This document shows positions 256-19,948 of a stretch of 64,000 bases of DNA, in pieces. The DNA is from an uncultured Chloroflexia bacterium (GTDB lineage Bacteria; Chloroflexota; Anaerolineae; Promineifilales; Promineifilaceae). The notes beneath the pieces are model-generated. The model was not told where the DNA came from and searched no databases. It saw only the letters and a program-made list of their open reading frames with translations. Position 1 is the first letter of the stretch. Each line of letters opens with the position of its first letter. Position numbers and translations under genes: made by a program. Location of the stretch: the NCBI GenBank assembly GCA_963695505.1, contig CAVOGX010000012.1, forward strand, positions 120,768 to 184,767, written 5' to 3'.

Positions 256-259
256 GGAT

Positions 260-1159: not shown

Positions 1160-1197
1160 AACATGAAGTAAGGGTGAGGGTATCGCCAAAGCAGTGG

Positions 1198-1695
1198 TTA
1201 AGCATACAAGAAAGTGCCCGGATCATCTGCCCACATTTGCACCACTTTCTCAAACTGCATGCCCAGCTTCTCAATGAGCCTGATGGAGGCGGTGTTTTCG
1301 GGAACGGTGAGGGCCACAATTTGGGGGATGCCCAGAGTGGAACGGCCGTACTGTAAAACGGCCGTTGCCGCCTCGTAAGCGTACCCCTGGCGATGATAGG
1401 GCGACAGCAGGGCAAAGCCGACGTCCGTGACGTCCAGGCTGGGGCGGTAAAGCAGCCCGCACACGCCAATAGGCTCCCCACTGTCCTGCAACTCCACCAG
1501 CAACTGCCCGTAGCCCGGCCGGGGCTGGTTGGTCCACGCCCCTTCTTGAATGAAGCGTCGGGCGTCGTCCAGATTCCGCACCTCCTTGTCCCCAATGTGG
1601 GCCAGGAAAGCGGGTTCATTCACCAACCGCAGCACAAAGGCCGCGTCGTCCTTTGCCAACTTGCGCAGCCGCAGCCGCTTTGTTTCTAAAATCAT
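1198..1695 (-). CDS. GNAT family N-acetyltransferase (RimJ/RimL-like)
   Basis: 165 aa. MILETKRLRLRKL N-terminus and acetyl-CoA motif region SPYHRQGYAYEAATAVL are typical of RimJ-type GNATs. Confidence 0.8.
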   Translation of the reverse strand: MILETKRLRLRKLAKDDAAFVLRLVNEPAFLAHIGDKEVRNLDDARRFIQEGAWTNQPRPGYGQLLVELQDSGEPIGVCGLLYRPSLDVTDVGFALLSPYHRQGYAYEAATAVLQYGRSTLGIPQIVALTVPENTASIRLIEKLGMQFEKVVQMWADDPGTFLYA

Positions 1696-1809
1696 AATTT
1701 ATTCGTACTCTCAGGCTCGTTCCTAACGGTTTGCGGTACCGATTTCGCATATTGTTTTCGGAAAACGCGATGCTGGTGGCAATATGTTTTGTGAAACAAT
1801 CCTATAGTT

Positions 1810-2346
1810 CTACTGTTGGCTAAACTCTGGGCGCAATAAGCCATACATGATTCGATCCCAGCGTCGGCCATCACAGAAAATCGCTTCTCGTTCCTGCCCT
1901 TCTCGAACAAAACCACACTTTTCCAGGATTCGCTGGGCTGCCAGGTTATGGTTTGCCGTTTCTGCGCTCACGCGGTGCAAATCCAAATGCTGGAAGGCGT
2001 AACGCAGGAGTGTCACGGTCGCGTCCTTGCCATAGCCTTGCCCGCGGTTGACTTGCCGCGCAATACCCAATCCAATCTTAGCCGTACGCTGCCGCCAGTC
2101 GATGTGAGCAAGTTGGATGTCACCCAACAATTTACCGTCGTGGGTGAAAACGCCCAAATAGACATGCTGCTTTCCTTGCCCAGCTTGCATCTCCTCAAAC
2201 CATTTTTCAGCACCTTCAATGGATAACCCTGGGTTTAGCGGTTCGGTGGGTAAAGGCGCAGTTGGTTCATACGCCGCCCACAATTCTTTGCAATGCTCTC
2301 GTTCCAGTGTACGCAAAACAATTTTCTCGCCCGGTAATTCAATCAT
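1810..2346 (-). CDS. GNAT family N-acetyltransferase (RimJ/RimL-like)
   Basis: IELPGEKIVLRTLEREH... and GIARQVNRGQGYGKDATVTLL motifs. The internal ATG at 2346 has a GAGAGG SD; the ORF-track start at 2406 is less likely. Confidence 0.75.
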   Translation of the reverse strand: MIELPGEKIVLRTLEREHCKELWAAYEPTAPLPTEPLNPGLSIEGAEKWFEEMQAGQGKQHVYLGVFTHDGKLLGDIQLAHIDWRQRTAKIGLGIARQVNRGQGYGKDATVTLLRYAFQHLDLHRVSAETANHNLAAQRILEKCGFVREGQEREAIFCDGRRWDRIMYGLLRPEFSQQ

Positions 2347-2612
2347 TACACACACCTCTCGCTTTAGGACACTGCCTGACCCATTATCGCCCAATTCGCA
2401 GATCAACGGGCAACATATAAACCAGCTTTAGGGGCAGAACATAAAGCGGGATTCGAGAACCAAATATTAATGATATAACCGCTGTCAGTCAGCGTGTTGG
2501 CAGCAAGCGCTGGTTAGGCGCTGCTATCCGTCTCGCATAATGCTGGGCTTCATTATAACTGGCCCTCGGCAACTCTACCGCTGCTAAAATATCGTATCGC
2601 TACGTAACGACT

Positions 2613-3290
2613 TCACTCATCACTTTTAATAACCGTAGGTAGAAAGGTTGCACCAGGAGGGGCTTGATAGTAAATGCGAAAACCACACACCTGCGTATCA
2701 TTGCCCAGGTCATAAGGGCGCCAGTTGATGACATACGAATAGTTTAGGTAGTCGACCGTATGGGTAAATTCGCTGGTGGTGCCGTAGCCATTGCCGCTTT
2801 CACCGCTCGAATTGACCCCCCATTCGCTTACGATGGTGCCATACAAGTCATAAACAGTTAACCACGCAGACGAATTATAGGTGGCATTTGTGTCAAAGTA
2901 GTACATGCGCACATACTTCACCGTCGCACCCTGCGGCAGATACACCGGTGCGTTGAACACCGCATACGTACTGCCGCTGGAAGCGTAGATGCAGCCACCG
3001 CCACCGGCGCCAGTCCACTCCACATTGCTTTCCCGCGGCTTCAGCGCCGACCCCGAAATGCGTAGGGATGCGTTATAGGTGGCGGCCGTTTCGTCCACGG
3101 CACCAATGCTCTCAAGCTGGTCAGGCAAGCTTTGTACTTGCACCCCTTCCGGAATAGGTGCGCTGCTCAGCCAGATAGAGGTTTGGTCATCGTTCACTGG
3201 CGCCTGAGCCCAGCCGATGCCGCTGATGACCATGACTACACACAATAATCCCAGGGTTGCAGCCCCTAATAGCGCCAGGAACTTCTTCAT
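2613..3290 (-). CDS. Secreted hypothetical protein
   Basis: Signal peptide MKKFLALLGAATLGLLCVVMVISGIGWAQA. Asn/Tyr/Gly-rich beta-type sequence with no recognised domain. Confidence 0.6.
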   Translation of the reverse strand: MKKFLALLGAATLGLLCVVMVISGIGWAQAPVNDDQTSIWLSSAPIPEGVQVQSLPDQLESIGAVDETAATYNASLRISGSALKPRESNVEWTGAGGGGCIYASSGSTYAVFNAPVYLPQGATVKYVRMYYFDTNATYNSSAWLTVYDLYGTIVSEWGVNSSGESGNGYGTTSEFTHTVDYLNYSYVINWRPYDLGNDTQVCGFRIYYQAPPGATFLPTVIKSDE

Positions 3291-3725
3291 TGCAATCTTC
3301 CTTTTGCTCTGCTTAATCTGCCTCTAGCCCTGGCGGGCATGGTCTAAAGCCTAGTGCCCTACCCGAGCAATCACATTAAACAAAGCACTCAAAGCATGAG
3401 GGAGGATGCCCCTCCTGCTCAAACCCACTTTTATTAACCTGCATGCTTGTGGAAAAAGCTCACCAGTCAGCGAGAATGTGCGATCACAAGTGAAGGGTGA
3501 AGATAGAAAGCATGGTATCGACCTGCGTAACGGCCGTCTGACTCCCGCATCATGGGCCAAAACATACGCGCGCCCATGTGTTGGTATGGCTCTTGCCCAC
3601 ATTTGCAGGATAGCATACCCTTCATTTCCCGGTCAATTGCCTGGAGTTATCGTGCTGCAACGGCCGTTTTCATCCTCACCCAATCCCACATCGCACCATC
3701 GCCCATTTCCCGCTAAAATAACCTC

Positions 3726-6008
3726 ATGGATATTTTGCATGGACTCAACGACGCGCAGAAAACGGCCGTTTCCGCCCCACCTGGCCCCGTTCTCGTCTTG
3801 GCCGGACCGGGCAGCGGCAAAACCCGCGTCCTCACCCACCGCATCGTCTACCTCATCCGCGAAGCTAAACGTCGCCCCCTGGCACATCCTGGCCGTCACC
3901 TTCACCAACAAGGCCGCCCGCGAAATGAACCAGCGCATCGAGCAGATGTCTGGACGGCCGTCCACGCGGCCTGATGATGGGCACCTTCCACTCCACCTGC
4001 GCCCGCATCTTGCGCCGCGAAACCGACAACCTGACCTACTACGAGCAACGATTTCGTCATCTTCGACACCGCCGACCAACAGCAGGTGGTGAAGCAAGCC
4101 CTCAAAGACCTGAACCTGGACGACAAAAAGTTCCCGCCCAACAAGATGCTCAACGGCATCAGCAGCGCCAAGAATGAACTGGTGACGCCCAGGAATTATA
4201 CACGCCACCAACTACATCGCCGCCGTCACGCGGCGTGTTTACGAGCGCTACCAGGACATTTTGCACGCCAACAACGCCATGGACTTTGACGATTTGCTGA
4301 TGAACACCGTGCTTGCTCTTTGACGAACGCCCCGACGTGCTGCAAAAGTACCAGCAGCAGTACCAGCACATCCTGGTAGACGAGTTTCAGGACACCAACA
4401 CGGCCCAATACGCGCTGCTCAAGCGGCTGGCGGTCGGCCATCAACAACATTTTTGTCGTCGGCGACAGCGACCAATCCATTTACAAATGGCGCGGCGCCG
4501 ACTTACCGCAACATCAATCGCTTCCGCGAGAAATTACCCGGAGGCGCAACAAATTTTGCTGGAGCAAAACTACCGCTCCACGCAGATTATTCTGGACGCG
4601 GCCAAGGCGGTCATTCAGCATAACAGCAACCGCGTCCACAAAGATTTGTTCACCGAGCGGCAGGGGGGCGACCTCATCGTCGTGCGGGAAGCGTATAACG
4701 ACGGGAGGAGGCGGAAACCATTGTGAGCACGATTCAATCTGCTCCTGCTGGACGGCTATTCCCCCAGCGATTTTGCCGTCATGTACCGCACCAACGCCCA
4801 ATCCCGCGCCCTGGAAGAAGCCTTTGTCCGCGCCAGCATGCCCTACCGGCTGGTGGGGGCCACCCAATTTTATAAGCGGCGCGAGGTGAAAGACGTGATT
4901 GCCTATTTGCGACTGGTGCATAATCCGGCCGATTCGGTCAGCTTCAACCGTATCATCAACACCCCCACGCGCGGCATTGGCACCAAAACCTGCAAACGCT
5001 GAACTGCCTGGGCGCAGCAAATGGGCTGGCTGCCAGCGGAAGCGCTAATGAAGCTGGCCTTGACCCGGACGTACAGCATCCGTTTAACGGCCGTGCCTTC
5101 AACGCCCTGAGCGACTTTGGCGAGATGTACTCGATGCCTGGATCACGCTGCACGAGCAGGAAATCAGCGTCGGCGAACTGATGGACACCATTTTGGAGCA
5201 AACCGGCTACCGCGAATACATCGAAGACAGCGCCAAAGACAGCGACGAGTACGTGGACCGCTGGGCCAACGTGATGGAACTGCGCAACACGGCCGCAGAA
5301 GACGGCCGTTTCCCTCACCGAATTCCTGGAACATGTCGGCCCTGGTCTCCGAAACCGACAACGTGGAAGAGGGCATTGCCGCCACCACGCTGCTCACCCT
5401 GCACGCCGCCAAAGGGCTGGAGTTTCCGGTCGTCTTCATCGTTGGGCTGGAGGATGGCATTCTGCCCCACAGCCGCTCGCTGGACGACCCGCGACGACCT
5501 GGACGAGGAGCGCCGCCTCTTTTACGTGGGCATCACTCGCGCCATGGACCGCCTTTACCTCTCCCACGCCTTCCGGCGCACGGTGTGGGGCCAGCCGGAC
5601 GTGGCTGTGCCCTCCCGCTTTTTGCGCGAGATTCCCGATGACCTGCTGGCGGGGGCCAGCGCTAAAGCGCGGCGGCAGCAAACGAAAACGCGGGCCAGCA
5701 GTTGGAATTGGTCTGCCCAAGCTACACCCACCACCCGGTCAACCAGAAACAGCAGGCAGCAACAGGAACGGCCGTTGCCCCGCTCCCGCTCATTGCCCAC
5801 GCCCAATACCTATGATGAACCCACGCCGCCAGCCCCCAGCGGTCCCAGATTCCACACCGGGCAGCGCGTGCGCCACGCCAAATTCGGCGAAGGCACCGTC
5901 ATCGACAGCAAAGTCGTCGGCAATGACGAAGAAGTCCACGTCGCCTTTGCCGGGGAAGGGGTCAAGCGTCTGGCCGCCTCCTTTGCCAAACTCGAAATTC
6001 TTGATTAG
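3726..6008 (+). pseudogene. pcrA: UvrD/PcrA-type ATP-dependent DNA helicase, broken into at least 8 frame pieces as assembled
   Basis: Helicase motifs appear in the correct order across ORFs 3726-3974, 3406-4092, 3974-4177, 4086-4289, 4313-4726, 4781-5002, 5117-5641 and 5181-6008: [61 protein letters not shown] and a C-terminal Tudor-like tail GQRVRHAKFGEGTV. Confidence 0.9.
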
Positions 6009-6022
6009 CCTATTCACAAAAC

Positions 6023-6910
6023 ATGCACTATCTCATCGACGGCCATAACCTCATCGGCAAGCTGCCGGACATCAAGCTCAGCGATTCTGACGACGAGATT
6101 CGCCTGATTTTGCGCCTGAAGGGGTGGGTATCCGGCCACAAACAGCGCCAGGTGACGGTAGTTTTTGATGGCGGTATAACCGGCGGCATTTCGCACCGCC
6201 TTTCCACTAAAGCCATTACCGTGGTCTTTGCGCCGCAGGGCAAAACGGCCGACGATTTGCTCATTCAGCGGCTCAAGCGGCTGCGCAATCCGCGCAATTA
6301 CACTCTGGTCAGCAGCGACCGCCGCATTTTGGATGCGGCCAAAATTGCGCGCATCAAGCACCTGAAGTCGGAAGAGTTCATTACCCAGTTGGGCTTTGTC
6401 TTCCGCGAGGAGCCCAAACCGCCTGCGAAAACTGTCCCCGTTGCCTCGCCGCCTGACGCTGAAAAAGCGGATGACCCGCAAATCAGCGATGCCGAGGTGG
6501 ACGAATGGCTGAACCTCTTTGGCCCTGCCCCTAAATCGCAGCCGAAACGCCGGCGCGGATCTTACAGCGTGCTGCGCAAACAGGGGGAAGAGACCACGCC
6601 AGAAGCGGAGTCGCAGCCAGAGGAGCGCCGCCCGCTAACGCCGGAAGAGTTTGCGGCTATGGCGGAGTCGGACAACCCGGAGCTGGATGAGGCAGAGGTG
6701 GCAGAATGGCTGGCGCTGTTTGGCGGGGAGCAGGCGGGCAAGAAACGGCCGTCCATTACCTCCAAGCCCACCAAATCCCAATCCGTGCGCCAAAAAGAAG
6801 AGAAACCCGCCGCCTCTGGCCGCCTGACCACCATGAAAGACGCCCCGCGCAAGCTGAGCCAGGACGAAGTAGACGAGTGGCTGCAGCTTTTTGGCGGGGA
6901 CGCCGAGTAA
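6023..6910 (+). CDS. NYN/YacP-like (Rae1-type) RNase domain protein with a repetitive acidic C-terminal tail
   Basis: N-terminus MHYLIDGHNLIGKLP...VTVVFDGG...TADDLLIQR matches the YacP/NYN fold. The tail carries 3 copies of an EV(D/A)EWLxLFG motif. Confidence 0.7.
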   Translation: MHYLIDGHNLIGKLPDIKLSDSDDEIRLILRLKGWVSGHKQRQVTVVFDGGITGGISHRLSTKAITVVFAPQGKTADDLLIQRLKRLRNPRNYTLVSSDRRILDAAKIARIKHLKSEEFITQLGFVFREEPKPPAKTVPVASPPDAEKADDPQISDAEVDEWLNLFGPAPKSQPKRRRGSYSVLRKQGEETTPEAESQPEERRPLTPEEFAAMAESDNPELDEAEVAEWLALFGGEQAGKKRPSITSKPTKSQSVRQKEEKPAASGRLTTMKDAPRKLSQDEVDEWLQLFGGDAE

Positions 6911-6976
6911 TTAAAAGGGCGCACCTTTGATAGGTACGCCCTTCGTTGCGGGAATGGGAAATGTGGGAAACGGCCG

Positions 6977-8479
6977 TTACGCCATCTCTGCCGCCGCTAA
7001 CTCCTTCAACAGCCCTACCCGCTCGTTAAACGCATCAATCAGCGCGTCCATCTCATCCACGTGGCCGTGAATGCTCGTCCAGTAATTCGGATCATACCAC
7101 TGAGCCTGAATTTCTTCGTAGGTCTTGCCTTGCTGCTCGACCCAGGTGAAATACTTCAGGTTGTGGACCCGCTTGCGGTCCACGTAGGTCAGTTCCTGCA
7201 TATTGTCCGTCGTTTCGCCCAGCAGATAGCGTTGGAAGACGCCAGCCGCATCCAGTTCGCTGAATTCGCCTTCTTCTTCGGTGCAGTTCTACCAGCCGGC
7301 TCTGGTACATTTCCATCGAGTCGGTAGCGACGGTGATGATCACATCATTGCCGTCCATTTCATAATATTTGGCCGTCTTGATGGCCGCCAGCACATTGGC
7401 CATGCTGGAGATGCCCAACAGCGGCAGGTCGGCGACCAATTCCGGATCTACGCCCTGGCTGACCAGATATTCTTGCCCCGCCGGTTCGTTGAAGAGGCGG
7501 ATCAGGCCCATCGTGGCATTGTCGTCAATGGCCGTGACGATGTCGGTGTTCTTGACGTTGTGAATCCAGGGCACGTGCTTGTCGCCAATGCCTTCGATGC
7601 GGTGCGCGCCAAAGCCGTTGTTGAGCAAGGTGGGGCATTGCAGCGCTTCGCTGGCCACGATTTTGCTGTGCGGGGAACTGCTCTTTCATGTAGTCGCCAC
7701 AGGCAATGGTGCCGCCGGAACCGGTGTTGGAGACGGTGGCGCGGAAGCGGTCACCTGCGCCCATGACCTCGCCCAGAACTTCCATCATGGCCCGGCCGGT
7801 GACTTCGTAATGCCACAGGTAGTTGCCAAACTCTTCAAACTGGTTGAAGATGACCAGATCTTGCCCGGAGCGGCGCAGTTCCCAGCATTTGTCAAAGATT
7901 TCCTTGACGTTGCTTTCTGAGCCGGGGGTCTTGATGGTTTCGCCAGCCACCGATGGCCAGCCAGTCAAACCGTTCCTTGCTCATGCCTTCGGGCAAAATG
8001 GCGATGGATTCGCAGGCCAGCAGGTTGGAGTCGTATGCGCCGCCGCGGCAGTAGTTGCCGGTGGTGGGCCAGACCGCTTTTTGGGTGGTGGGGTCAAATT
8101 GGCCGGTGACCAGACGGGGCACCAGACAGCCAAAAGCCGCGCCGACTTTGTGCGCGCCGGTGGGGAACCATTTGCCCAGCAGAACGACGATGCGGGCATC
8201 GACGCCGGTCAGTTCTTTGGGCAGTTCCAGGTAGTTGACGCCGCCAAATTTGCCGCCGCTTTCTTTGGGCTCGTTGTGCCAGGTGATGCGGAACAGGTTC
8301 AGCGGGTTCAAATCCCACAAGCCGACATCTTCCAGCTTCTCCTTGATGGCGTCAGGAATCAGGTTCGGGTTGATCATCTGCTTGAAGGTGGGGATGATAA
8401 TATTTTGTTCGCGGGCGCGCTGAATGGCGCGTTCCAGCTTGGCTTCATCGTGAATGGTTAAATCAATTAAATCGCTCAT
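6977..8479 (-). pseudogene. Fold-type II PLP-dependent enzyme (cysteine synthase-like, ~490 aa), 3 frameshifts as assembled
   Basis: Pieces 7892-8479, 7525-7968, 7092-7658 and 6977-7201 are colinear. PLP-lysine region FPTGAHKVGAAF and phosphate loop SNTGSGGT are present. Confidence 0.75.
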
Positions 8480-8491
8480 GATTTTTCCTTG

Positions 8492-8549
8492 TAGAGAGAC
8501 TGGTGATTGAGGAATTGATTGCGGTATATCTCCAGTCTCTAATTTCTAA
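8492..8549. repeat. Imperfect hairpin built from short tandem units in an operon spacer
   Basis: tagagagactggtgat ... atctccagtctcta arms lie between the thrC-like stop (8550) and the PLP-enzyme start (8479). Confidence 0.6.
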
Positions 8550-9814
8550 TCATCCGATTTCTTGCATAACCTGCTTCAGGCTATCCAAATTTGGCTCCAC
8601 CCGGTTGGGTTTTGTGCCCACCATTTCGACTGATTTCATGGCGCCGGCGACATCTTTCAGGCCGTTGCCGGTGTTGAGGACGACAATGCGGTCGTCGGCG
8701 CGACACCAGCCCCAGTTCGACCGCTTTGACCAGGCCGGCGTAGGCGGCCGCTCCGGCCGGTTCGGCAAAGACGCCGGTGCCGCGGGCCAGGGCGGGAATG
8801 GCGGCCAGGATTTCGTCGTCGGTGACGCTGATGTAAGCGCCGTTGGTTTCGGTAACGGCCGCTAACGCTTTAATGCGGTCTCGCGGCAGCCCGGCGCTGA
8901 TGCTGTCGGCGACGGTGACGCCGGAGACGGGCGCTTTGGTCAGCACATCTTCGCCGTCTGCGCCACGCTTCGTACATGAAGGCGCTGCCTTCGGCCTGCA
9001 CGCCGATAGATGCGCGGCATGTGGTCAATCCAGCCCAGGGCCAGCAAATCTTTCAGCCCTTTGTGCAGCCCGCCGATGATGCAGCCATCGCCCACGCTGA
9101 CGAAGATGACATCGGGGGCGTTCCAGTCGAGCTGTTCACAAATTTCGTAAACGGCCGTTTTCTTGCCCTCGGTCATGTACGGATTGTAGGCGGTATTGCG
9201 GTTGTACCAGCCGTACTCGGCCGCCGCTTCCAGACACAGCTCAAAGGCGTCATCATAGGTGCCTTTGACCAGCATCACCGTCGAGCCAAAGACCAGCAGT
9301 TGGGCGATTTTGGCCTGCGGCGCGGATTCCGGCACAAAGATGACGTTGGGCTGCTTCGACGCTGGCGCAGATGCCGCTCAGGGCGGCGGCGGCGTTGCCG
9401 GTGCTGGCCGTGGTGATGATCTCGGCCCCTTTTTCCTGCGCTTTGACCACAGCGATGGCGCTGGCACGGTCTTTGAAGGAGGCGGTCGGTAAACGGCCGT
9501 CATCCTTCACCCACACATGCTTCAACCCCAATTCCGCCGCCAGCCGGTCCGCCTCGTACAGCGGCGTCCCGCCAACCGTCAGCGGCGGCACCGGCGCATC
9601 CGGCTGCAACCGGCAGCAGCGGCTTGTAGCGCCAGATCGTGTGATCCGGGTTCTCGGCCAGGCTTTCCCGGCTGATGCGCTGTCCAATTAGTTCATAATC
9701 GTAGCGCACATCAACAATGCCTTCGTTGCCGTGATCGGGGCAAATATACTCAATTTCATCCGGGGCATATTCTTTGCCGCAGATGAGACATTTAAGGTGT
9801 TTTACGTGATCCAT
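8550..9814 (-). pseudogene. thrC: Threonine synthase-like PLP enzyme, about 4 frameshifts as assembled
   Basis: Zn-ribbon N-terminus KCLICGKEY...CPDHG, PLP lysine motif PTASFKDRAS and STGNAAAALS. Colinear pieces are 9500-9814, 9253-9687, 8940-9335, 8581-8946 and 8550-8768. Confidence 0.8.
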
Positions 9815-9828
9815 AGTTCTCTCTTCCT

Positions 9829-9892
9829 CGTGAAACGTGAAGTCGTGATACGTGATTGACTACTTTTCACGTATCACATATTACGTTTCACG
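9829..9892. repeat. Long imperfect hairpin of (CGTGAAA/CGTGATA)-type tandem units in an operon spacer
   Basis: cgtgaaacgtgaagtcgtgatacgtga ... tcacgtatcacatattacgtttcacg, with ~26-nt arms, between the arcC stop and the thrC-like start. Confidence 0.7.
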
Positions 9893-10849
9893 TTTTAAGG
9901 TTCAATAAATGTTCCTGTCTCGCCGCGCAGGGCGCGGGCAATATTGGCGGGTCGGTGATGAGGGCTTTTTTGCCGCCATTTTCCAGGAAGTTGATCACCG
10001 CTTCAATCTTCGGAGCCATGCTGCCTTTGGCGAAATGCATGCCTTCGGCCAGATATTGTTTGGCTTCAGCCAGGGTCATGTGATCCAGCCATTTTTCGTT
10101 TGGTTTGCCAAAGTTGAGGGCGACTTTTTCAACGGCCGTACTGATCAACAACAAGTCTGCACCAATCTGCTGCGCCAGCAGCGCGCTGGCCCGATCCTTG
10201 TCAATGACAGCATACACGCCGCTCAGTTCGCGCAGTTCCCCTTTCTGATTCTGCACCACTGGAATGCCACCGCCGCCTACAGCAATGACGATATTGCCGG
10301 CGTTGGTCAGCGTCTGGATGGCATCCTGCTCCACGACTTCCAGAGGCATGGGTGAAGCGACCACACGCCGCCAGCCGCGGCCGGCATCTTCCACGACTTG
10401 CCAGCCTTCCGTCTCAAACTCTGCGCGCTTCTGCTTCTTCCATAAAACTACCAATGGGCTTCGTCGGGTTCTTGAAATCCGGGATCATCCCGGTCAACCA
10501 ACACCTGGGTTACGACGGAAACAACCGGCTTATCAATGCCCCGGCTGTTCAACTCATTGCGCAGTGCCTGCTGCAGCATGTAGCCAATGGAGCCTTGTGT
10601 ATCTGCGCCGATAATGTCCAGCGGCGTTGGGTGCACTTCATGCGCGGCCAATTCGTTGCGGCGCAAAATGTAGCCAACCTGCGGCCCATTGCCATGCGTC
10701 ACCACCAGCGTCCAGCCATCTTCAATCATATCGGCCAGATGGCGGCACGTTTCACGCACCGCATCCCATTGATGGGGCACGTCGGGATTGTTTTTATCTG
10801 TAATTAATGAATTGCCGCCAACAGCAACGACGGCCAATTTTTTACTCAT
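9888..10849 (-). pseudogene. arcC: Carbamate kinase, 2 frameshifts as assembled
   Basis: MSKKLAVVAVGGNSL...VTHGNGPQVG and IAVGGGGIPV motifs. The break is near 10450. The native C-terminus ANIARALRGETGTFIEP is recovered in another frame and ends at 9895. Confidence 0.85.
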
Positions 10850-10866
10850 AGTGGGAATCCTCCAGG

Positions 10867-10950
10867 ATTGTCAATGGTTCAATGGTCAATTGCCAATTCT
10901 CAGTGAGGAGCCGTTGACAATTGACCATTGGCTTATTAGCAATTGACAAT
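10867..10950. repeat. Heptamer-tract palindrome (ATTGTCA/ATGGTTC/AATGGTC ... GACAATT/GACCATT)
   Basis: 7-nt periodic arms of opposite polarity fill the spacer between the YgeW-like stop (10951) and the arcC start. Confidence 0.7.
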
Positions 10951-11934
<984 letters not shown>

Positions 11935-11951
11935 TTTTAGTCTCCTTGAAT

Positions 11952-12030
11952 CTGTCAGCTCGTCAGTAGTCTCAGTCAGTCAGCGCCAGATAGCTGAATG
12001 CTGACAATGACTACTTGACTAATTGACTGC
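11952..12030. repeat. Tandem-unit palindrome (GTCAGC/GTCAGT ... GCTGA/TTGAC units)
   Basis: Fills the spacer between the ATCase-like stop (12032) and the YgeW-like start (11934). Confidence 0.65.
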
Positions 12031-12031
12031 T

Positions 12032-12986
12032 TTACTCAGTTGCGCCCATAACCAGGGCCAACAGCGCCATGCGCATGACAACGCCGTTGAAGGCTTCTTG
12101 CCAGTAGCGGGACCAGCGGGTGATGTCTACATCGGCCGGAATTTCGTCCATACGCGGCAGGGAGTGCAGCAGGATGGCGTCGGATTTGGCTTTGTTGACC
12201 AGCAGGTCTTTGGTGATTTTGTAGTTGGAGGGGGTCAGACCCACATCGCCGTCACGCTCGTCGCGGGATTTGGTGTAGTCGGGCTGGACAACCGGCTCGA
12301 CGAGGATGACGTCGGCTTCGGCGATAGCTTCTTCGACATGCTCAACTTCTTTGAAGTTCAGGCCGTAGTTTTCGAAGTCGGCTTTCATTTCTTCGCTGAG
12401 ACGCTGCCCTTCGGGGGAAACGAAGGTGATGGGGCAGTCGAATTGGGTCAGGCCGTAGCCCAGGGAGTGCATGGTACGCATCCGCATATCGCCAACAGCC
12501 AGCCATTTCAAACCATCAATGCGCGCCTTTTTCGCGCAGAACGGTGTAGAGGTCGGTCAGAATCTGGGTGGGATGTTCGCCCCAGCCGTCGCCGCCGTTG
12601 ATGACGGGAACGCTGGCCCATTTGGCGGCTTCGTGCGGTGCACCTTGTTGGAAGTGACGCATGACGATGACGTCACCATAGAACTCCAGCATTTTGACGG
12701 TGTCTTTGATGGATTCCTGGTAGAAATCGCCAGCGCGGGTCATTTTGGCGTCGGAGAAGCCGGTGACCTGACCGCCGAGGCGGAGCATGGCGGCTTCGTG
12801 GGCCAAACGGGTGCGGGTGGAGGGTTGGTAGAAGGCGGTGACCAGGGTCTTGTCTTTCAACAAATCGGTGTTCTGACGATTACGGGCGATGGGTTCTAGT
12901 TCTTCGGCAATCTCGAAGACGCGGAAAAACTCTTGACGTTCAAAATCTTTGAGGGACAAAATGTCTCGTCCTGCAAAACTTCTCAT
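12032..12986 (-). pseudogene. Aspartate-carbamoyltransferase-family paralogue (atypical), 1 frameshift as assembled
   Basis: STRTR, GEHPTQ, HSLPRMDEIPADVD, NGVVMRMALLALV. The ATG at 12986 is preceded by AAGGAGAAT. The break is near 12515. Confidence 0.75.
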
Positions 12987-13077
12987 GATAATTCTCCTTA
13001 TTAAAATAGTGTGGGCTGTTGCAAAGCTGCCGGATGTAAATTGGTAAAAAGCTGCCGCCAATGGGCAACGGCAGGTA

Positions 13078-13821
13078 TCACACAATTAGCAGTACTTGCC
13101 GCCGAATGAGGCGCAAGCGCAGCAGATCGTCGCGGAAGCAGGAGGTTGACTTGATGATGGGTTCGTTGTCGTCATTGTAGCCTATTTCGCAAAAGGATAT
13201 GAGGCGGTGTTGGGGTTGGATGTGTAAGGTTTGGGCCAGATCTGGCTCAGCGATGATGGGGATGATTTCGGACAGGTAGTAGGTGAGGCGTTGACGGCCG
13301 TTTTCCCACAAAAATTGGTATACCGGCATGCGAAAATCTTCGGACTGATATGGTTTTTCAACCAGCTGCAGTCGGAATGCGATTGTAGGCCAGAATAACA
13401 GGCTGATCATCGGCCAGAAACAGCTTTTTAACCACCAACACCTCATCGCCAGGGGTCAGATTTCCAGCTCGGCGGCAACTTCATTGCCGGCCGGTTCGGT
13501 GCTGAACTTCGAGAATTTGGGTGGAGGGGGTATAGCCATGGGCGCTGGATCACATCTTCGTAAGACCAGATTTCTTCCAGGCGGGATTTGATTTGCAGCC
13601 CGGCTTCGTTGACGAAGGTGCCCGCCCCTTGTTTGCGGAAGATGACGCCTTCAATTTCTAGGCGGCTCAGGGCGTCGCGGATGGTGGTGCGGCTGACCTG
13701 TAGTTCGTCGGCCAGGTCGGTTTCGGAGGGGATACGGCCGTCTTCAAACGCATCATCTAAGAATGCGCTCTTTGATGTGGGACTTGGCCTGTTCGGTTAG
13801 GGAGGGCGTTCGCTTAAGCAT
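13078..13821 (-). pseudogene. GntR/HutC-family transcriptional regulator (wHTH + UTRA), several frameshifts as assembled
   Basis: N-terminus MLKRTPSLTEQAKSHIKERIL / DDAFEDGRIPSETDLADELQVSRTTIRDALSRLEIEGVIFRKQGAGTFV. UTRA-like C-terminus is in ORF 13078-13446. Confidence 0.75.
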
Positions 13822-13826
13822 TTATC

Positions 13827-13869
13827 GGTAAAATCGGTCATATCGTATGGTTGTATGACAAATTTTACC
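13827..13869. promoter_or_regulatory. Candidate operator: 43-nt nested palindrome directly upstream of the HutC-family gene
   Basis: GGTAAAAT-cg-GTCATA-tcgtatggttg-TATGAC-aa-ATTTTACC, ending 6 nt before the ATG. Confidence 0.4.
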
Positions 13870-13953
13870 GCATTTAGGAAACGGCCGTCAAGTAAAATTG
13901 GGCCAATCTGCCAAATGTCATGTGGAAAAGATGACATCCGACACCTCAGGGGT

Positions 13954-15497
13954 TCAGGGGCGCGAAATGGCGGGCAAGTAAAGCCGCCTTTGGGGCCAAA
14001 AGATGTTGTTGGAAAGCGGGGAATCGCCTCCGTCATTTCTGGTTTTGAGGGCAAAGTAGACGGTGCTGCCGCTGTAGGGCGTAACGGCCGTATACGTGCT
14101 CGCATTCCCGGCCAGTGAATCGGTTAGCAGGATGGCACTGTTCCAGTTGGCTGCGGTGATGGGCGCAGAGGCATAGCGAAGGGTGGTGGTGAGGGCGCCG
14201 GCTGGTGGCGTCCATTGCAGGGTGGCGGTCAGGGTGTTGGCGCTGGTGACTGCTTGGCTGATGGTCAGGTCAGAAACGGCCGTTGACGGAGACACGCCAT
14301 ACTCATCAGCACCCACGTCTGGGGCCGCGCCAATGGGCCGGGCGTCGCCGTCAAAATCGTCGGTGACGGCCGTCAGGGGACTGGCCTGATCAATGGCCGC
14401 CGTAGCCACGGCAGTCAGGTGCAAATCACCGCTGGCAACATTGGCAAACCAGCCTGTTTGGGCGTTGGTCAGGTTCCCGGTGCTGGTGGCCTGCGCTCCG
14501 TCCCGGTCTGCCCAGATGTTCATGTTGGTCAGATTGTAGGCAAACAGGCCCTGGGTGTCGCTGAAGCGCGCTTCCATGCCCCAGGTGAGGCCGGTAGCGG
14601 GATTGAGCAGAACGGCCGTGTTGTGAGCCACCAGCCAGCCCGTGGCATGGCTCATCTCGATGGCCACGTCGTGCGCCTCGCGAAACAGGAACATATTATT
14701 GCGCACAATGCCGCCCGGTATGGCCGCTGCTCAGGCCAAAGGCCACCCCGCGCCCGCAGTCCAGCAGAAAATTACGCTCCACCACGGTATCCGAGGAGCC
14801 ATTCCAAAAGAGAATGGCCGGAACAGGCGTGCCGTCGTCGGTGAGGATGCGCACCCACTCGTTGTCGCGCACCACCCAGCGGTGGGCATCGTGGGCGCTG
14901 ATGCCGTTGGTGTAATTGTCTGGGGCAGGTCGTGGTGTATTCCAGGCGTGAGCAGGCCAGCAGGCCGTCTTCACTGCCATCCCCAGCCGGATTCACCTTC
15001 ACCAATTGGTCGTTGATGTCCAGGATGTGCAGATTGTACAGGGTTGGCCGGTCGCGCCCCTGGATCGAGACACCGTGGTCGGCGGCGTTGCGGATGGTCA
15101 GATCGGCGATGGTCACGTCGTCGGCGTCGACCAGGATGCCAAAATGGCCGCCCACCATCCCGCCAAAGTCCAGTATGACGTCCCCGCGTCGGCCAGGTTG
15201 GCCGCGTAAAGTGATGCCATCGTGAATGATGTGGAGATAGCTGCTCATGTTGTAAATACCCGGCGCGATGCGAATAATGGTCCCAGGGGCAGCATTGTAG
15301 GCTTGGGCGATCAAATCCGCCTGGTTATCGACATCAATTGTAGGTGCATCGGGTAAGACCAGGACTGGGCAGTGGACGGTAGCAGCGGAGTGGGCGTTGG
15401 TTGCGGGGAAACGGCCGTTGCTAAACATTACCCGCCCCGCCAAAGCCAGCAACAAAATTATAAAGAATATCAGGGTTTCCCTTCTTGTAATTAACAT
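13954..15497 (-). pseudogene. Secreted right-handed beta-helix (pectate-lyase-fold) protein with an FN3-like C-terminus, 2 frameshifts as assembled
   Basis: Signal/TM MLITRRETLIFFIILLLALAG. Beta-helix repeats are present (VTIADLTIRNAADHGVSIQG...). Pieces are 14772-15557, 14696-14980 and 13954-14706. Confidence 0.65.
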
Positions 15498-15520
15498 AAA
15501 GGTTTGATTGAAGAGGGTAA

Positions 15521-16228
15521 TCAATAGGGTGGTTCTGCAGGGCCCACGTAACCACACTGCCCCATACGCGGTGAATTGACCACAGGCAGTGCCATCTCGC
15601 TGTCATGTGAATAATCTTTAAGGCAACTCTCGCAATACATCCACCAATCTTGGTCCCACATACATTCTGTGCAAATCCATTCGGCAGGTTTACTGCAATT
15701 TGCGCATTGCAAATCCATTAGCTTATTGCGGGCCATCAAGAAAATTGGTTTCCCTTGCCATTTCCCTTGGCGTATGTCAATAACGCGAATCGTCAATTCT
15801 GTCGTTGTCCCAAAGTCATACTCATAGGAGATTTCTATACCTGGAACAAAAAGGGGATCAACTCGTGCGCTCATGTCCCGTTCTTCTCGCCAGCCCCGGT
15901 CATCACCAAATAATTGGGTATAAAAAACATCTCCGATGGTAAAACCACTTAAGTGACCACAGCACTCCAGCCAGATAGTACGCAAATAATCATCCAGATC
16001 GTTCAGTGTCGCTTTTCCAGGAACTTCCAATTGCAGCCAAAAGTCCCCCCCATAGGCATCTTGCACGACAAGGAAATAGATATTACCATTCCACATTCGA
16101 CCTTTCCCACTAGATTCTTGGGCTGTTTGGCGTGCTTCACAGGTTTTCAAGTGGCGGATCATGCCACCTCGTGTGTATTCCTTACCGCAATAAACGCAAT
16201 CGCCCCTTGTTTGCTTTTTCCGAGCCAT
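15521..16228 (-). CDS. PRiA4b-ORF3-like domain protein with N- and C-terminal Cys-rich zinc-finger motifs
   Basis: LEVPGKATLNDLDDYLRTIWLECCGHLSGF resembles the plasmid pRiA4b ORF-3 family. CVYCGKEY..HLKTC and CANCSKPAEWICTEC..CESC are also present. GC is visibly lower than in the neighbours. Confidence 0.55.
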   Translation of the reverse strand: MARKKQTRGDCVYCGKEYTRGGMIRHLKTCEARQTAQESSGKGRMWNGNIYFLVVQDAYGGDFWLQLEVPGKATLNDLDDYLRTIWLECCGHLSGFTIGDVFYTQLFGDDRGWREERDMSARVDPLFVPGIEISYEYDFGTTTELTIRVIDIRQGKWQGKPIFLMARNKLMDLQCANCSKPAEWICTECMWDQDWWMYCESCLKDYSHDSEMALPVVNSPRMGQCGYVGPAEPPY

Positions 16229-16283
16229 TTTTCCCTCACATAGTTAACAGTGTCCAGGCCACAGGGTATGCTGGCCTGATAAG

Positions 16284-18099
16284 TTATGCAAACAAATCCA
16301 CCACCTCAAACTTCGTCACGTCTACCATCCCCAGGTCGGAAATGCGCAGTTCGGGGATGACGACGAGGGCCAGCAGGCTGAGCTGCATGTAGGCGTTGTT
16401 GAGCGTGCAGCCGCATTCGGCCATCGCCTGCACCATGCGCGCTGCCTTGTCGGCCACGATTTCCGCCCGTTCGTCGGACATGAGCCCGGCGATGGGCAGT
16501 TCGACCAGGGCAATTTCCTGCCCATCCTTGAAGACGACGACCCCGCCGCCCACTTCGCCCAGCCGGTTGGCCGCCAGGGCCATGTCTGCCTTTGCTGGTG
16601 CCGACGACAATCATGTGGTGGCTGTCGTGGGCGACGGTGGTGGCGACGGCGCAGGGCACGTTGAAGCCAAAGCCATGCACAAAGCCGTTGGTCACGCCGC
16701 CGGTGGCTTGATGCCGTTCGACCAGGGCAATTTGGCAGACATCTTGGCCGGCTGTCCATTTGCACCAGGCCATTTTCGACGGGCAGTTCGCGTTCAAGGG
16801 CGCGGGTCGGCGCCTGATTTTCGATGACGCCAATGACGCGAGCGGTTACGGCGTCAGATCTACGGGTTTCTGAAACCTTGCAGGTCTTGGGATGTCGAAG
16901 TCGGTAGCGGTGAGTGTTTTGCCGAGTTTGACGGTGTTTTTGGCGAAGTCGGGGTAGTCGTAGGGGGGAATATCGATGGCAATACGGCCGTTTTCCGCCA
17001 CAATTTCTCCACCGGCAATGACCAGTTTCGATGGGCAGCGTCGACCAAATCGCTGCTGATGACGATGTCGGCATAGCGGCCGGGGGTGATGGAGCCGATG
17101 TCTTTTTCCACGCCAAAATGTTCGGCCGTGTTGAGCGTCGCCATCTGGATCGCCGTGATCGGTTTGAGACCCTGGGCGATGGCGTGGCGCACGACGCGGT
17201 TCATGTGGCCGTCGTTGACCAGCGTGCCGGAGTGGCTGTCGTCGGTGCAGAGGATGAAATTGCGGCTGTCCAGCCCCTGTTCGGTGATCGCTTTGACCTG
17301 GGTGGCCACATCATACCAGGCCGAGCCGAGGCGCAGCATCGCTTTCATGCCCTGGCGCACGCGGGCGATGGCGTCTTCGACGCGGGTGCCTTCGTGGTCG
17401 TCGGCGGGGCCGCCAGCCACGTAGCCGTGAAAGGGGCGGCCCAGATCGGGCGAGGCGTAATGGCCGCCGATCGACTTTGCCCGCTTTCATCGTTTCGGCC
17501 ATTTCGGCGTGCATCTTGTCGTCGCTCATGAAAACGCCGGGGAAGTTCATCATCTCGCCCAGGCCGATGATGCCGGGCCAGGTCATCGCTTCGGCCACTT
17601 CGGCGGGGCCGATGGATGCGCCGGGCGTTTCCAGGCCGGGGGCGCTGGGCACGCAGGTGGGCATTTGCACGTAGATGTTGATGGGCAGGGTTTGGGCTTC
17701 GTCGTGCATCAGTTTGACGCCGGGCAGGCCGAGGACGTTGGCGATTTCGTGGGGGTCGATGAACATGCTGGTGGTGCCGTGCGGAATGACGGCGCGGGCA
17801 AATTCGGTGACGGTGACCATGCCGCTTTCGACGTGCATGTGGGCGTCGCACAGGCCGGGGATGAGGTAACGGCCGTTTGCCTCAATCACCTCCGTCTCTT
17901 CCCCAATGGTGTGGCTGGCATCTTCGCCGACGTAGGCGATGCGGCTCTGGCAGATGGCCACATCGGTGTTGGGAATGATTTCGCCGCTGTGGACGTTGAC
18001 CCAACGGCCGTTTCGAATGACCATGGTGGCCGGTTTGCGGCCCATTGCCACATCTACTAAATCTTTTGCTAATTCATGCCAGGGTTGTCGTTGCATCAT
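16284..18099 (-). pseudogene. ade: Adenine deaminase, about 3 frameshifts as assembled
   Basis: MMQRQPW...VIRNGRWVNV...IEANGRYLIPGLCDAHMHVESG... Colinear pieces are 17311-18339, 16860-17420, 16322-17116 and 16284-16610. The ATG at 18099 has a GGGAGAG SD. Confidence 0.85.
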
Positions 18100-18250
18100 T
18101 TCACTCTCCCTACATAATTGGAGGTAAGGCTGCTGGCTGCCAAGACCAGTGGTCTCTCTAACTGCCCCACCCGTGTAATCACGTTTTATGTGTAATGTTG
18201 TAGGCTGTCTGCAACAATAGCTTCTGCGGTAATCTTCATCCACTACCAGG

Positions 18251-19948
18251 CTATAATTCTGCTGGCAGCCACACCTGCACAAAAACCCCGTTCCCTGAAT
18301 CGCTGCGGGCGGAGACCGTGCCTTTATGTATGTGCACAATGCCCTGCACCAGCGTTAAACCTAAACCAATACCCAGTTTTCCACCATGCACAGCCCCGCT
18401 GCCACTGTAAAAACTATCAAACACGTGGGGCAGTTCTTCATCAGCAATACCGGCTCCCGTATCTTGCACTGTCAACCCTACCTGTTGTTGTTCCACATCC
18501 AGAAGGGTGCGCACGCGAATAGCCCCTGAAGCAGTAAAGGAAACCGCATTATCGAGCAAAAGGCCTAACATCTCCACCAACTGCTGCCAGTCCCCCCGCA
18601 CCAGAGGCAGATCGGGCACCAGCGTGATGTCTAACTGTAGCCCCAGGGCAGTCGCCCGCTGCCGGTACATATTCACGGCCGCCACAACAACGCTGTTTAA
18701 ATCGACCAGAGAGATGTCTAGCGGGGACTTCATCAGGTCCGTTTGCGCCAGGCGGACTAATCCTTCGGCCAGCTTTACCAGGTGCTGCGTTTGGTCCCGC
18801 AGCACTTCCAGGTATTGGGCCTGTTTTTCAGGATTAGCCCGCTCCCACAAATCCAGGTAGAGGGCTAGGTTGGTCACCGGGTTGAGCATTTCCTGGGTCA
18901 TACTATCCATCAACTCTGACTTAAATTGACCTAATGCCTGCAACCGTCCATATGCTTCAGTCAGTGCCCTGGTTTGTTCCACAACCCGCTGCTCTTCGTC
19001 AAGAACCTGTTCTTGCAAGCGGGCATGTTCGATGGCAACGGCAGCCTGCCGGGTGAAAATCATGGCAATGTCTGCTTCAGCCTGGCCATATTGATGGGGT
19101 TTGCCAGAACTCAGGTTCAATAAGCCGACAATTTCTGCCTGGATGATCAGCGGAATACCCATCCAGCAGCAAATTTGGCTGGTTTTGGGTAATGTTTGCC
19201 AACGGGGATCGTTGGCCGTATCGCCAACAATGACCGGCGCACGGGAACTAAAAACCCGTTGAATGTGGGGGAATTTTTCCAGCGGAAGCCGGGTGCCTTT
19301 GCGGCCACCAGCATGGAGACTGCGTTGGGCAACGCTTTGTAAATTGTCTCCCTGTAAAAGCATGATGGATGCACTATCGTAGGGCAATACGCGGGACAAT
19401 TGGTCGAGAATTTGCTCCAATACATCGTCGCGCCGCAGGCTTTTGTTAATGGCTTGAATAATGAGACCAAGGGTTTCGACCAGGGTGCGCTGCTGGCGTT
19501 CTGTCTTTGACAGCCGGGTGCGATATTGTTCGGCCTGAACCTGCTCGCGGGCAATTTGGTCTAGTTTATCCTGCAAATGCTGCCCATGTTCCACCACTTC
19601 TTTCAGGCGCAGTTGAATGCGGGTACGAACCAGGAGTTCTGACTGGTTAAAGGGTTTGCATAAATAATCGTCGGCGCCGGCTGTCAGTGCGCGGCTGCCG
19701 GACTGATGATCGGGTACCAGGGCAATGATGGGCACGTGTTGGGCCAGGAAGGTGGTCAGGGTGGCATTAATCTGGTGGGGGGCCAGGCTGAGTATGAACA
19801 GGTCAATGTCGGGGGGTAGGGGTGTGGCGCTGCCGGGAGAAACGGCCGTTACGCGGTAGCCATGGGATTGCAAGGTGGCCGTAACCACCATTTGCATGGC
19901 AAGTTCCTCGTCAACCAGCACCACGTGTGCGCTCATATCTTTGTCCAT
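18251..19948 (-). CDS. Hybrid sensor: receiver (REC) + GAF + HisKA + HATPase histidine kinase
   Basis: REC-like N-terminus VVLVDEE..., a GAF region and the HATPase G-boxes DTGAGI...GLGLTLV. The start is probably ATG 19948 (MDKDMSAH). Confidence 0.85.
   Translation of the reverse strand: MDKDMSAHVVLVDEELAMQMVVTATLQSHGYRVTAVSPGSATPLPPDIDLFILSLAPHQINATLTTFLAQHVPIIALVPDHQSGSRALTAGADDYLCKPFNQSELLVRTRIQLRLKEVVEHGQHLQDKLDQIAREQVQAEQYRTRLSKTERQQRTLVETLGLIIQAINKSLRRDDVLEQILDQLSRVLPYDSASIMLLQGDNLQSVAQRSLHAGGRKGTRLPLEKFPHIQRVFSSRAPVIVGDTANDPRWQTLPKTSQICCWMGIPLIIQAEIVGLLNLSSGKPHQYGQAEADIAMIFTRQAAVAIEHARLQEQVLDEEQRVVEQTRALTEAYGRLQALGQFKSELMDSMTQEMLNPVTNLALYLDLWERANPEKQAQYLEVLRDQTQHLVKLAEGLVRLAQTDLMKSPLDISLVDLNSVVVAAVNMYRQRATALGLQLDITLVPDLPLVRGDWQQLVEMLGLLLDNAVSFTASGAIRVRTLLDVEQQQVGLTVQDTGAGIADEELPHVFDSFYSGSGAVHGGKLGIGLGLTLVQGIVHIHKGTVSARSDSGNGVFVQVWLPAEL

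Follow-up and report, generated by a model that had tools for sequence, protein, structure and literature searches.

The window analysed here is a stretch of 64,000 nt from an uncultured Chloroflexia bacterium (Anaerolineae, Promineifilaceae), positions 120768-184767 of contig CAVOGX010000012.1 (C12), in a genome of 5.0 Mb that is assembled in 23 contigs and is 85% complete. Stop-to-stop reading of window positions 6500-14800 revealed a single string of six genes on the minus strand at 6977-13821, each broken into two to five frames. Coded there are a regulator, two transcarbamylases, a carbamate kinase, and two pyridoxal phosphate (PLP) enzymes, and their probable place in the breakdown of purines is the subject of this report. 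Gene limits were obtained by mapping intact orthologues back onto the genome, with the last stop codon and the ATG of the regulator as the ends of the row. In the direction of reading, the genes are:

13078-13821, minus strand: GntR/HutC-family regulator (PF00392 and PF07702 on the intact orthologue; ATG at 13821; about two or more frameshifts)
12032-12986, minus strand: paralogue like aspartate transcarbamylase (ATCase), a 'pseudo-ATCase' (TIGR00670 with 257 bits, and motifs; one frameshift near 12521)
10951-11934, minus strand: short YgeW-related transcarbamylase of about 326 aa (alignment and motifs; three frameshifts, at 11114, 11805, and 11826)
9888-10849, minus strand: carbamate kinase (TIGR00746; three frameshifts, at 9949, 10421, and 10478)
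8550-9814, minus strand: ThrC-like fold-type II PLP enzyme with an N-terminal cysteine ribbon (NF006050; at least five frameshifts, among them at 9006 and 9354)
6977-8479, minus strand: PLP490, a PLP enzyme of about 500 aa with the fold of CysK and cystathionine beta-synthase (CBS) (PALP family; three frameshifts, at 7283, 7675, and 7956)

The identities come from NCBIfam scans of the window fragments and of the intact same-genus orthologues in locus L009, whose products are 242, 317, 326, 325, 436, and 492 aa long from the regulator to PLP490. An original prediction for this DNA had described the same six-gene row on the minus strand with these identities, which both sets of scans confirmed, and by speaking of repaired proteins it had implied broken frames; every gene is indeed frameshifted in the window. 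On the L009 orthologue of the regulator, the GntR winged helix (PF00392) scored 62.7 bits and the UTRA effector domain (PF07702) 78.8 bits. The carbamate kinase of L009 passes TIGR00746 with 374.5 bits (cut-off 358.25) and reaches 397 bits with NF009007. The carbamate kinase of the cluster is the only one found in the source genome.

Judged by family models and motifs, the two transcarbamylases are additional paralogues of non-canonical type, and their loops for the second substrate are altered. Only three OTCace genes occur in the source genome, two in the cluster and the third on contig C7, which is ArgF because it carries DxxxSMG and HCLP. Relatives encode canonical PyrB (TRVQKER, HPLP) and ArgF elsewhere, and with TIGR00670 the canonical PyrB of four same-genus genomes reached about 376 bits vs about 255 bits for the cluster paralogue. 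The ATCase-like enzyme passes this model (257 bits, above 237 bits) but is without the PyrB motifs RxQxER and HPLP. In a midpoint-rooted FastTree tree, which was read together with the motifs and with no support values examined, its clade groups beside PyrB. The clade keeps STRTR, HPTQ, and the equivalent of R167, EPVVQPDYTKSR replaces RxQxER in the 240s loop, and HSLP replaces HPLP. STRT, HPTQ, HSLP, and V-x-P at the RxQ position, which are pseudo-ATCase features, were present in all 15 members of the clade, and the context of ygeW homologue, xdh, and hyuA was found as well. The pseudo-ATCase group was already described in 2013, with a member from Nocardioides sp. JS614 beside a ygeW homologue, xdhABC, and hyuA (PMC4016543). 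The cluster enzyme has in common with that group its origin in the ATCase branch, the kept STRT and HPTQ, the lost RxQ, HSLP, and the adjacent ygeW homologue and purine genes. It corresponds to the row HSLP / VxP in Table 1 of Barba et al. 2013, where the mapping of table rows to numbered subgroups is one that we infer. The sole assayed member of the group, from Rubrobacter and acting on allantoate, has a motif pair different from that of the Nocardioides-type enzyme of the cluster. As the arginine for the alpha-carboxylate is kept and the pair for the beta-carboxylate is lost, the ATCase-like enzyme would suit an N-alpha-carbamoyl amino acid with a non-carboxylate side chain, such as 2-ureido-3-amino- or 2,3-diureidopropanoate.

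Fragments of the short transcarbamylase in the window match the N-acetylornithine, YgeW, and ornithine transcarbamylase models best. The enzyme falls below every NCBIfam cut-off, its L009 orthologue scoring 259-262 bits for ornithine transcarbamylase (OTC), 252 bits for acetylornithine transcarbamylase (AOTC), 211 bits for putrescine transcarbamylase (PTC), and 191-200 bits for YgeW. It is not an OTC, as it has KSWGPL for DxxxSMG and HPLP for HCLP and reaches 258.6 bits vs 280.85 bits in TIGR00658. Neither is it YgeW by TIGR03316 and NF005538 (191.4 and 200.1 bits vs cut-offs of 500 and 453, respectively), and it is 326 aa long vs 396 aa. In the tree it groups beside the true YgeW clade. When aligned to YgeW, it shares the extended 120s loop and the proline-rich KPxSVPQ loop and is without the N- and C-terminal helices and two inserts. 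Knotted transcarbamylases are recognised by a proline-rich loop together with an extended 120s loop (PMC4581275); in the AF2 model of the short enzyme, the pLDDT is 65.8, too low for a knot check or a fold search. Thus, the name YgeW-like in the original prediction holds in so far as the enzyme is a relative of YgeW, only a short one and far below the cut-offs of 453-500 bits. Its statement that neither transcarbamylase looks like OTC or PTC agrees with the cut-offs and motifs and extends to PyrB, both enzymes lying outside the ArgF and PyrB clades without their specificity motifs. The outcome that it had named as refuting is thus not borne out. A further YgeW-related transcarbamylase of 352 aa, with KAWCPTV and HCLP, was seen in a genome of the same genus (G004:C18:74512-79763, locus L111) about 3.4 kb from a D-hydantoinase gene, and would be a third catabolic-type transcarbamylase in the genus.

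PLP490 has conserved helical extensions of about 90 aa at the N-terminus and about 100 aa at the C-terminus. With about 190 extra residues, it scored 95.9 bits with the CysK model TIGR01139 and does not reach the cut-off of 350.95. Its PLP lysine lies in FPTGAHKVGA and is aligned to the lysine of SVKDR, and the positions of the Asn-loop and glycine-loop are also conserved. The predicted fold (pLDDT 83.7, pTM 0.89) has a core that matches CysK, CBS, and beta-cyanoalanine synthase in Foldseek, with a TM score of about 0.8 by target. PLP490 has fold and PLP lysine in common with O-acetylserine sulfhydrylase and CBS but is larger and far below the CysK cut-off. Three sequence subtypes (about 65-90%, 43-49%, and 36% identity) were distinguished, all in the same cluster context, and sequences labelled as Chloroflexota and as Desulfobacterales are 84% identical. 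In public annotation the protein is a 'pyridoxal-phosphate dependent enzyme' or a 'cysteine synthase'.

The ThrC-like enzyme passes NF006050 (315 bits vs 303 for the L009 orthologue), has 160-190 bits to solved threonine synthases, and retains the SFKDR lysine; it has fold and PLP lysine in common with threonine synthase. Differences were found family-wide: in all 55 members examined, Ala stands for the Thr of STGNT, and the Arg of NPYR(I/L)EGQKT is replaced by M, T, or L in every case. The motifs of the family are STGNA and NP[YF][MTL]xEGKKT vs STGNT and NPYR[IL]EGQKT in the solved threonine synthases, and all four aligned bacterial solved ThrC chains (6cgq and 2zsj included) have both the Thr and the Arg. 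From the T. thermophilus threonine synthase structure, we take these two residues to bind the phosphate of the substrate; with both replaced, O-phosphohomoserine is an unlikely substrate of the ThrC-like family. Neither PLP enzyme is YgeX (TIGR03528, 532 bits): the ThrC-like enzyme scored 64.6 bits on the related NF006058, and PLP490 had no match to a diaminopropionate lyase. The names of the families could suggest a chance row of housekeeping genes (PyrB, ArgF/ArcB, ThrC, and CysK) with carbamate kinase, and the ATCase-like and ThrC-like enzymes do score above the NCBIfam 'equivalog' thresholds set for aspartate carbamoyltransferase and threonine synthase, respectively. Such a row is hardly credible, because it is contradicted by the paralogue and motif tests: canonical PyrB, ArgF, and further matches of the threonine-synthase family sit elsewhere, the specificity motifs are altered throughout the families, and the gene order is kept across phyla.

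A species-representative genome collection contains at least 596 stretches with relatives of PLP490. In ten relatives, the genes beside PLP490 were the transcarbamylase (8), the ThrC-like gene (7), carbamate kinase (6), and the ATCase-like gene in only the three closest; either the short transcarbamylase or the ThrC-like gene adjoins PLP490 in all ten. The identical six-gene order occurs on an independent contig of 3.6 Mb (L021). The clustering is far beyond chance, as the core order recurs in all ten relatives and in dozens of named metagenome-assembled genomes (MAGs), and the gene-neighbourhood conservation that the original prediction proposed as a check is confirmed. A sample of 90 PLP490 loci from named MAGs and relatives was searched in tblastn with the proteins of the E. 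coli ygeW-xdhD cluster. Neighbours in this sample were the ThrC-like gene (61 loci), short transcarbamylase (43), carbamate kinase (39), HyuA/D-hydantoinase (31), XdhA (18), YgeY (17), SsnA (10), YgfK (5), true YgeW (4, with 65-69% identity to E. coli YgeW), and YgeX (1), and a strict marker of the purine pathway was present at 53 loci. Counted beside PLP490, the ATCase-like gene stood without YgeY 18 times and YgeY without the ATCase-like gene 13 times, both were present twice, and neither 13 times. At 31 loci (e.g., L068:12220-12801), the gene that closely follows PLP490 or HyuA codes for a conserved protein of about 193 aa without a Pfam family, which may reflect lineage synteny or be a further component of the pathway.

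PLP490 is a part of reductive uric-acid clusters (SsnA, XdhABC, YgfK, HyuA, YgeY, and true YgeW) in at least eight phyla. Loci were seen, among others, in Chloroflexota, Bacillota (Vallitalea maricola), Terriglobia, SAR324, Desulfobacterota, Myxococcota, Actinomycetota, and Bipolaricaulota. Vallitalea maricola and the MAGs of Terriglobia, SAR324, and Desulfobacteraceae have essentially all genes of the E. coli cluster, with PLP490 and the ThrC-like gene in the place of YgeX, and the YgeX family was not found in seven of nine holders of PLP490 outside Chloroflexota. On a Desulfobacter-type contig, the ThrC-like gene and PLP490 lie amid Bmp-type ABC transporters, 8-oxoguanine deaminase (695 bits), and the YqeB/YqeC maturation genes.

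In the reductive uric-acid (2,8-dioxopurine) pathway, E. coli YgeW performs phosphorolysis of 2,3-diureidopropanoate and YqeA forms ATP, the remaining ureido group is hydrolysed by YgeY, and YgeX turns 2,3-diaminopropionate to pyruvate (PMC12507026; bioRxiv 10.1101/2025.04.24.650524). YgeW together with YqeA yields ATP from 2,3-diureidopropanoate (bioRxiv 10.1101/2025.04.24.650524). The view of the original prediction that the substrate is unknown and that of YgeW unassigned is thus outdated, since the substrate of YgeW was published in 2025. Neighbours named 'YgeX' and 'YgeW' were scored in PMC12507026 by Pfam family only (PF00291 and PF00185), the preprint bioRxiv 10.1101/2025.04.24.650524 has no mention of the ThrC-like and CysK-like enzymes, and a literature search on the five-gene combination gave nothing relevant. 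Breakdown of pyrimidines or hydantoins could also recruit such genes, with a dihydropyrimidinase opening the ring and the transcarbamylase phosphorolysing N-carbamoyl-beta-alanine or another N-carbamoyl amino acid. The commonest amidohydrolase neighbour of PLP490 passes the D-hydantoinase/dihydropyrimidinase model TIGR02033 with 510 bits, and a catabolic beta-alanine transcarbamylase has been proposed (PMC4581275). This alternative is very unlikely, as E. coli HyuA, which belongs to this family, has been proven to open the ring in the urate pathway (PMC12507026; bioRxiv 10.1101/2025.04.24.650524), beta-alanine would leave two alpha-amino-acid-type fold-II PLP enzymes without a task, and Xdh, SsnA, YgfK, YgeY, 8-oxoguanine deaminase, and purine-nucleoside-type Bmp ABC transporters are among the neighbours.

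A genome-level profile was computed for 121 genomes of the Chloroflexota class with at least 90% completeness. PLP490 was found in 97 of them, SsnA in 98 (92 over the cut-off), the ThrC-like gene in 96, the short transcarbamylase in 93, and the YgeX family in one. PLP490 and SsnA are both present in 94 genomes, PLP490 alone in three, SsnA alone in four, and neither in 20; as genomes of one class are related and not independent, these counts overstate the support from co-occurrence, but the pattern is still clear. The 20 genomes without PLP490 and SsnA are spread over about ten GTDB families. With PLP490 and the ThrC-like enzyme as near-obligate companions of SsnA in the class, two PLP steps seem to be needed. 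The ATCase-like gene is present in 23 of the 121 genomes, all of them SsnA-positive.

In the source genome, SsnA is encoded at C14:784868-786196 (526.6 bits vs a cut-off of 455.5) beside a luciferase-like oxidoreductase of F420 type; Chloroflexota clusters were reported to carry an F420-type reductase beside SsnA (PMC12507026). XdhABC with YqeB, YqeC, and MocA lie on contig C1, and a homologue of 8-oxoguanine deaminase on C16. In this genome, at 85% completeness, no member of the YgeX family, no YgeY over the cut-off (best 177 vs 321.5 bits), no uricase, and no allantoinase was found. The surroundings of SsnA (C14:779-790 kb, L022) code for the luciferase-like oxidoreductase, an F420-glutamyl ligase, an Amidohydro_3 protein, and two proteins without a Pfam family, one of which (341 aa) has a 65%-identical paralogue beside the 8-oxoguanine-deaminase homologue on C16.

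An oxidative allantoin branch was considered too, in which the ATCase-like enzyme is a ureidoglycine carbamoyltransferase (allantoate + Pi) like Rubrobacter Rxyl_2847 and the YgeW-like enzyme is an oxamate-type transcarbamylase. Pseudo-ATCases are a recognised group, one member of which phosphorolyses allantoate beside carbamate kinase (PMC4016543), and allantoate, as diureidoacetate, has one carbon less than 2,3-diureidopropanoate. Nevertheless, the branch is unlikely. Uricase and allantoinase were not found in the source genome, and the partner genes follow SsnA, the marker of the reductive route. HSLP / V-x-P is a different row of Table 1 from H[ST]LP / GX[SC], and the context is that of the Nocardioides-type subgroup with ygeW homologue, xdhABC, and hyuA (PMC4016543). 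The oxamic transcarbamylase of E. coli is AllFGH, another family (PMC11326118).

The operon is likely the lower, ATP-yielding module of the reductive uric-acid pathway in a Chloroflexota form, with three E. coli enzymes replaced and with the frame breaks being errors. An upper module composed of the Xdh-type molybdenum hydroxylase with YqeB/YqeC, the F420-type reductase by SsnA, and a hydantoinase would deliver 2,3-diureidopropanoate. The short YgeW-related transcarbamylase would phosphorolyse one ureido group to carbamoyl phosphate, from which, with ADP, carbamate kinase would form ATP. The ATCase-like enzyme would then remove the second ureido group and so provide a second ATP; as YgeY was not found in the source genome, it is the only candidate there for this cleavage. 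Double phosphorolysis of this kind has somewhat less than an even chance. Finally, PLP490 and the ThrC-like enzyme would take diaminopropionate or an albizziine-type amino acid to pyruvate and ammonia in the place of YgeX. The phosphorolysis of a ureido compound with gain of ATP, which the original prediction read from the pair of transcarbamylase and carbamate kinase, fits the cluster. Its proposal of an amine such as 2,3-diaminopropionate or an albizziine-type product of purine breakdown is where the evidence points, with substrates deduced from context.

The cluster of E. coli and clostridia (xdhD-ygfM, ygfK, ssnA, hyuA, ygeW, ygeY, ygeX, and yqeA) is alike in that a transcarbamylase and carbamate kinase gain ATP from a ureido intermediate. 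Its companions SsnA, Xdh, YgfK, HyuA, and YgeY are the same in other genomes with PLP490, and the source genome has SsnA and Xdh/YqeB/YqeC. The differences are these: YgeW is full-length there, whereas the relative of about 326 aa is without terminal helices and two inserts; YgeX is replaced by two other fold-II PLP enzymes; an ATCase-derived paralogue is present in a genome in which no YgeY was found; a GntR/HutC regulator stands in contrast to the sigma-54 YgeV; and the lower module is encoded away from SsnA and the F420-type reductase. The arginine and agmatine deiminase pathways, with catabolic OTC or PTC and carbamate kinase, likewise combine ureido phosphorolysis with subsequent substrate-level phosphorylation but use other transcarbamylase subfamilies and substrates, and neither a deiminase nor OTC/PTC motifs are present in the cluster.

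Besides the relatedness of the class genomes, several points weigh against assigning the operon to the reductive uric-acid pathway. The genes of the upper module are on other contigs and not beside the operon, and HyuA/D-hydantoinase was not found in the source genome at its 85% completeness. The latter gap more likely reflects missing assembly than missing biology because of this completeness, and in five of five relatives HyuA/D-hydantoinase is over the cut-off. The two papers of 2025 disagree on the ureido group that is cleaved by YgeW (PMC12507026; bioRxiv 10.1101/2025.04.24.650524). Intermediates of the pathway are D-configured (bioRxiv 10.1101/2025.04.24.650524), whereas ATCase acts on L-aspartate. 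Substrates of the cluster enzymes are suggested by context, as are step order, regiochemistry, ATP yield, the PLP roles, and regulation. Replacement of YgeY by the ATCase-like enzyme is a tendency only, since at least six of the 23 class genomes with the ATCase-like gene have a gene of the YgeY family no more than 5 kb away from it. Last, one Bacillota cluster (L108) has the order HyuA-PLP490-YgeX without a ThrC-like gene. As PLP490 is paired there with a YgeX homologue, the ThrC-like enzyme may be the analogue of YgeX and PLP490 something else than a substitute for it.

Strict complementarity between the ATCase-like gene and YgeY was rejected at the genome level, as the YgeY family was found in 100 of the 121 class genomes, some without SsnA, and beside the ATCase-like gene in at least six.

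PLP490 might racemise the D-configured intermediate or carry out beta-elimination from albizziine. A bolder proposal, that PLP490 and the ThrC-like enzyme represent two new functions in a route from D-configured diaminopropionate or albizziine into central metabolism that bypasses YgeX (e.g., a racemase or urea-eliminating lyase and a deaminating lyase), and that the pseudo-ATCase makes the lower pathway fully phosphorolytic with two ATP per urate, is tentative and rather doubtful as a whole.

Upstream of the operon, two candidate regulatory features were found:

13826-13870: 17-nt inverted repeat (spacer of 11 nt) that directly adjoins the ATG of the regulator; candidate HutC-type operator
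13862-13891, minus strand: sigma-70-like promoter match (TTGACG, 18-nt spacer, TAAAAT), a match to the consensus only, which overlaps the palindrome

The core of the repeat, TGTCATA-N10-TATGAC, has its sole match in the window at 13826-13870, with 0 expected by chance. A similar palindrome, GTAAAATTTGTC / GACAAATTTTAC, is located at the same position upstream of the regulator in L009. The regulator probably represses the whole operon, itself included, at this palindrome over its own promoter. Repression would last until an intermediate of the pathway binds to the UTRA domain.

The frame breaks were analysed separately. At least 17 frame-breaking indels occur within 6.8 kb, and all six genes are affected. 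Compared with L009 DNA (83-86% identity), nearly all frame-breakers in coding parts are a single extra base in the window, and they are not confined to homopolymers. Coverage by long open reading frames (ORFs) collapses only over about 120-135 kb of C12, a patch which is among the lowest 0.5% or so of the 10-kb windows of the genome. Contigs of about 90%-identical relatives from two sediment studies are without the extra base at or beside 7669/7672, 7952, 9008, 9358, 10933, 11805, and 11828, which speaks for the sequence of the relatives only and not for the source reads. Real decay of the operon into pseudogenes could account for so many indels in 6.8 kb, and in the search of sequencing runs for the source reads the best three runs share only 5-6% of sampled words. 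Decay is nonetheless unlikely. It would be expected to mix deletions, insertions, and nonsense changes, whereas nearly all indels are +1. The in-frame pieces, with 85-97% protein identity to relatives, are as identical to them as intact relatives are among themselves. The patch spans unrelated neighbours, and comparable patches exist elsewhere in the genome. Also, the canonical ArgF on C7 (L024, C7:108.9-109.8 kb; DVWTSMG, HCLP) itself falls into three frames, meaning that essential genes outside the patch are hit by indel errors too, and the best threonine-synthase match elsewhere in the genome is split and has in-frame stops. The breaks lie in a local error-dense patch, and relatives have all six genes whole and in synteny, so assembly error is the best reading of them; judging by the sequence comparisons, the frameshifts are most likely sequencing or assembly errors and not gene decay.

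Dense single-base frameshifts cross unrelated genes in positions 1-18000 of the window (beta-helix exoprotein, adenine deaminase, and the six-gene operon), and elsewhere in the window the ORFs are long and unbroken. A handful of similar error-dense patches were seen elsewhere in the genome, e.g., at C15:430 kb, C14:1-10 kb, and C14:60 kb. The adenine deaminase (TIGR01178), placed by the original prediction 2.5 kb away, is present in fragments at 16860-18339 on the minus strand, about 2.5-3 kb from the regulator. It suits the purine theme, yet its adjacency is not kept in L009, where a gene for an FG-GAP repeat protein flanks the regulator. Directly downstream of PLP490, an intact NYN/YacP-like gene with a repeated EV(D/A)EWLxLFG tail lies on the opposite strand (6023-6910, plus). 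In L009, the ThrC-like gene and PLP490 are separated by two small ORFs for products of 111 and 203 aa, neither with a Pfam family (L009:9347-10280); both ORFs are absent from the window.

The cluster is most likely an environmental variant of a known pathway and not a new kind of system. The window itself adds modestly to this, as its gene copies are error-ridden. It was not until 2025 that the reductive uric-acid pathway was solved, and for gut bacteria only; the variant appears in about 80% of the high-quality genomes of a whole class of Chloroflexota and in no fewer than seven further phyla, without YgeX, the link to pyruvate, and with two PLP enzymes in its place. Annotation would need correcting, both for the names of PLP490 that are now public and for the other enzymes, to which automated pipelines would probably give the names 'aspartate carbamoyltransferase' and 'threonine synthase'. 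With functions assigned to the PLP pair and to the enzyme derived from ATCase, the pathway would be complete for most purine degraders of the environment, and it would be seen whether one or two ATP are gained per urate.

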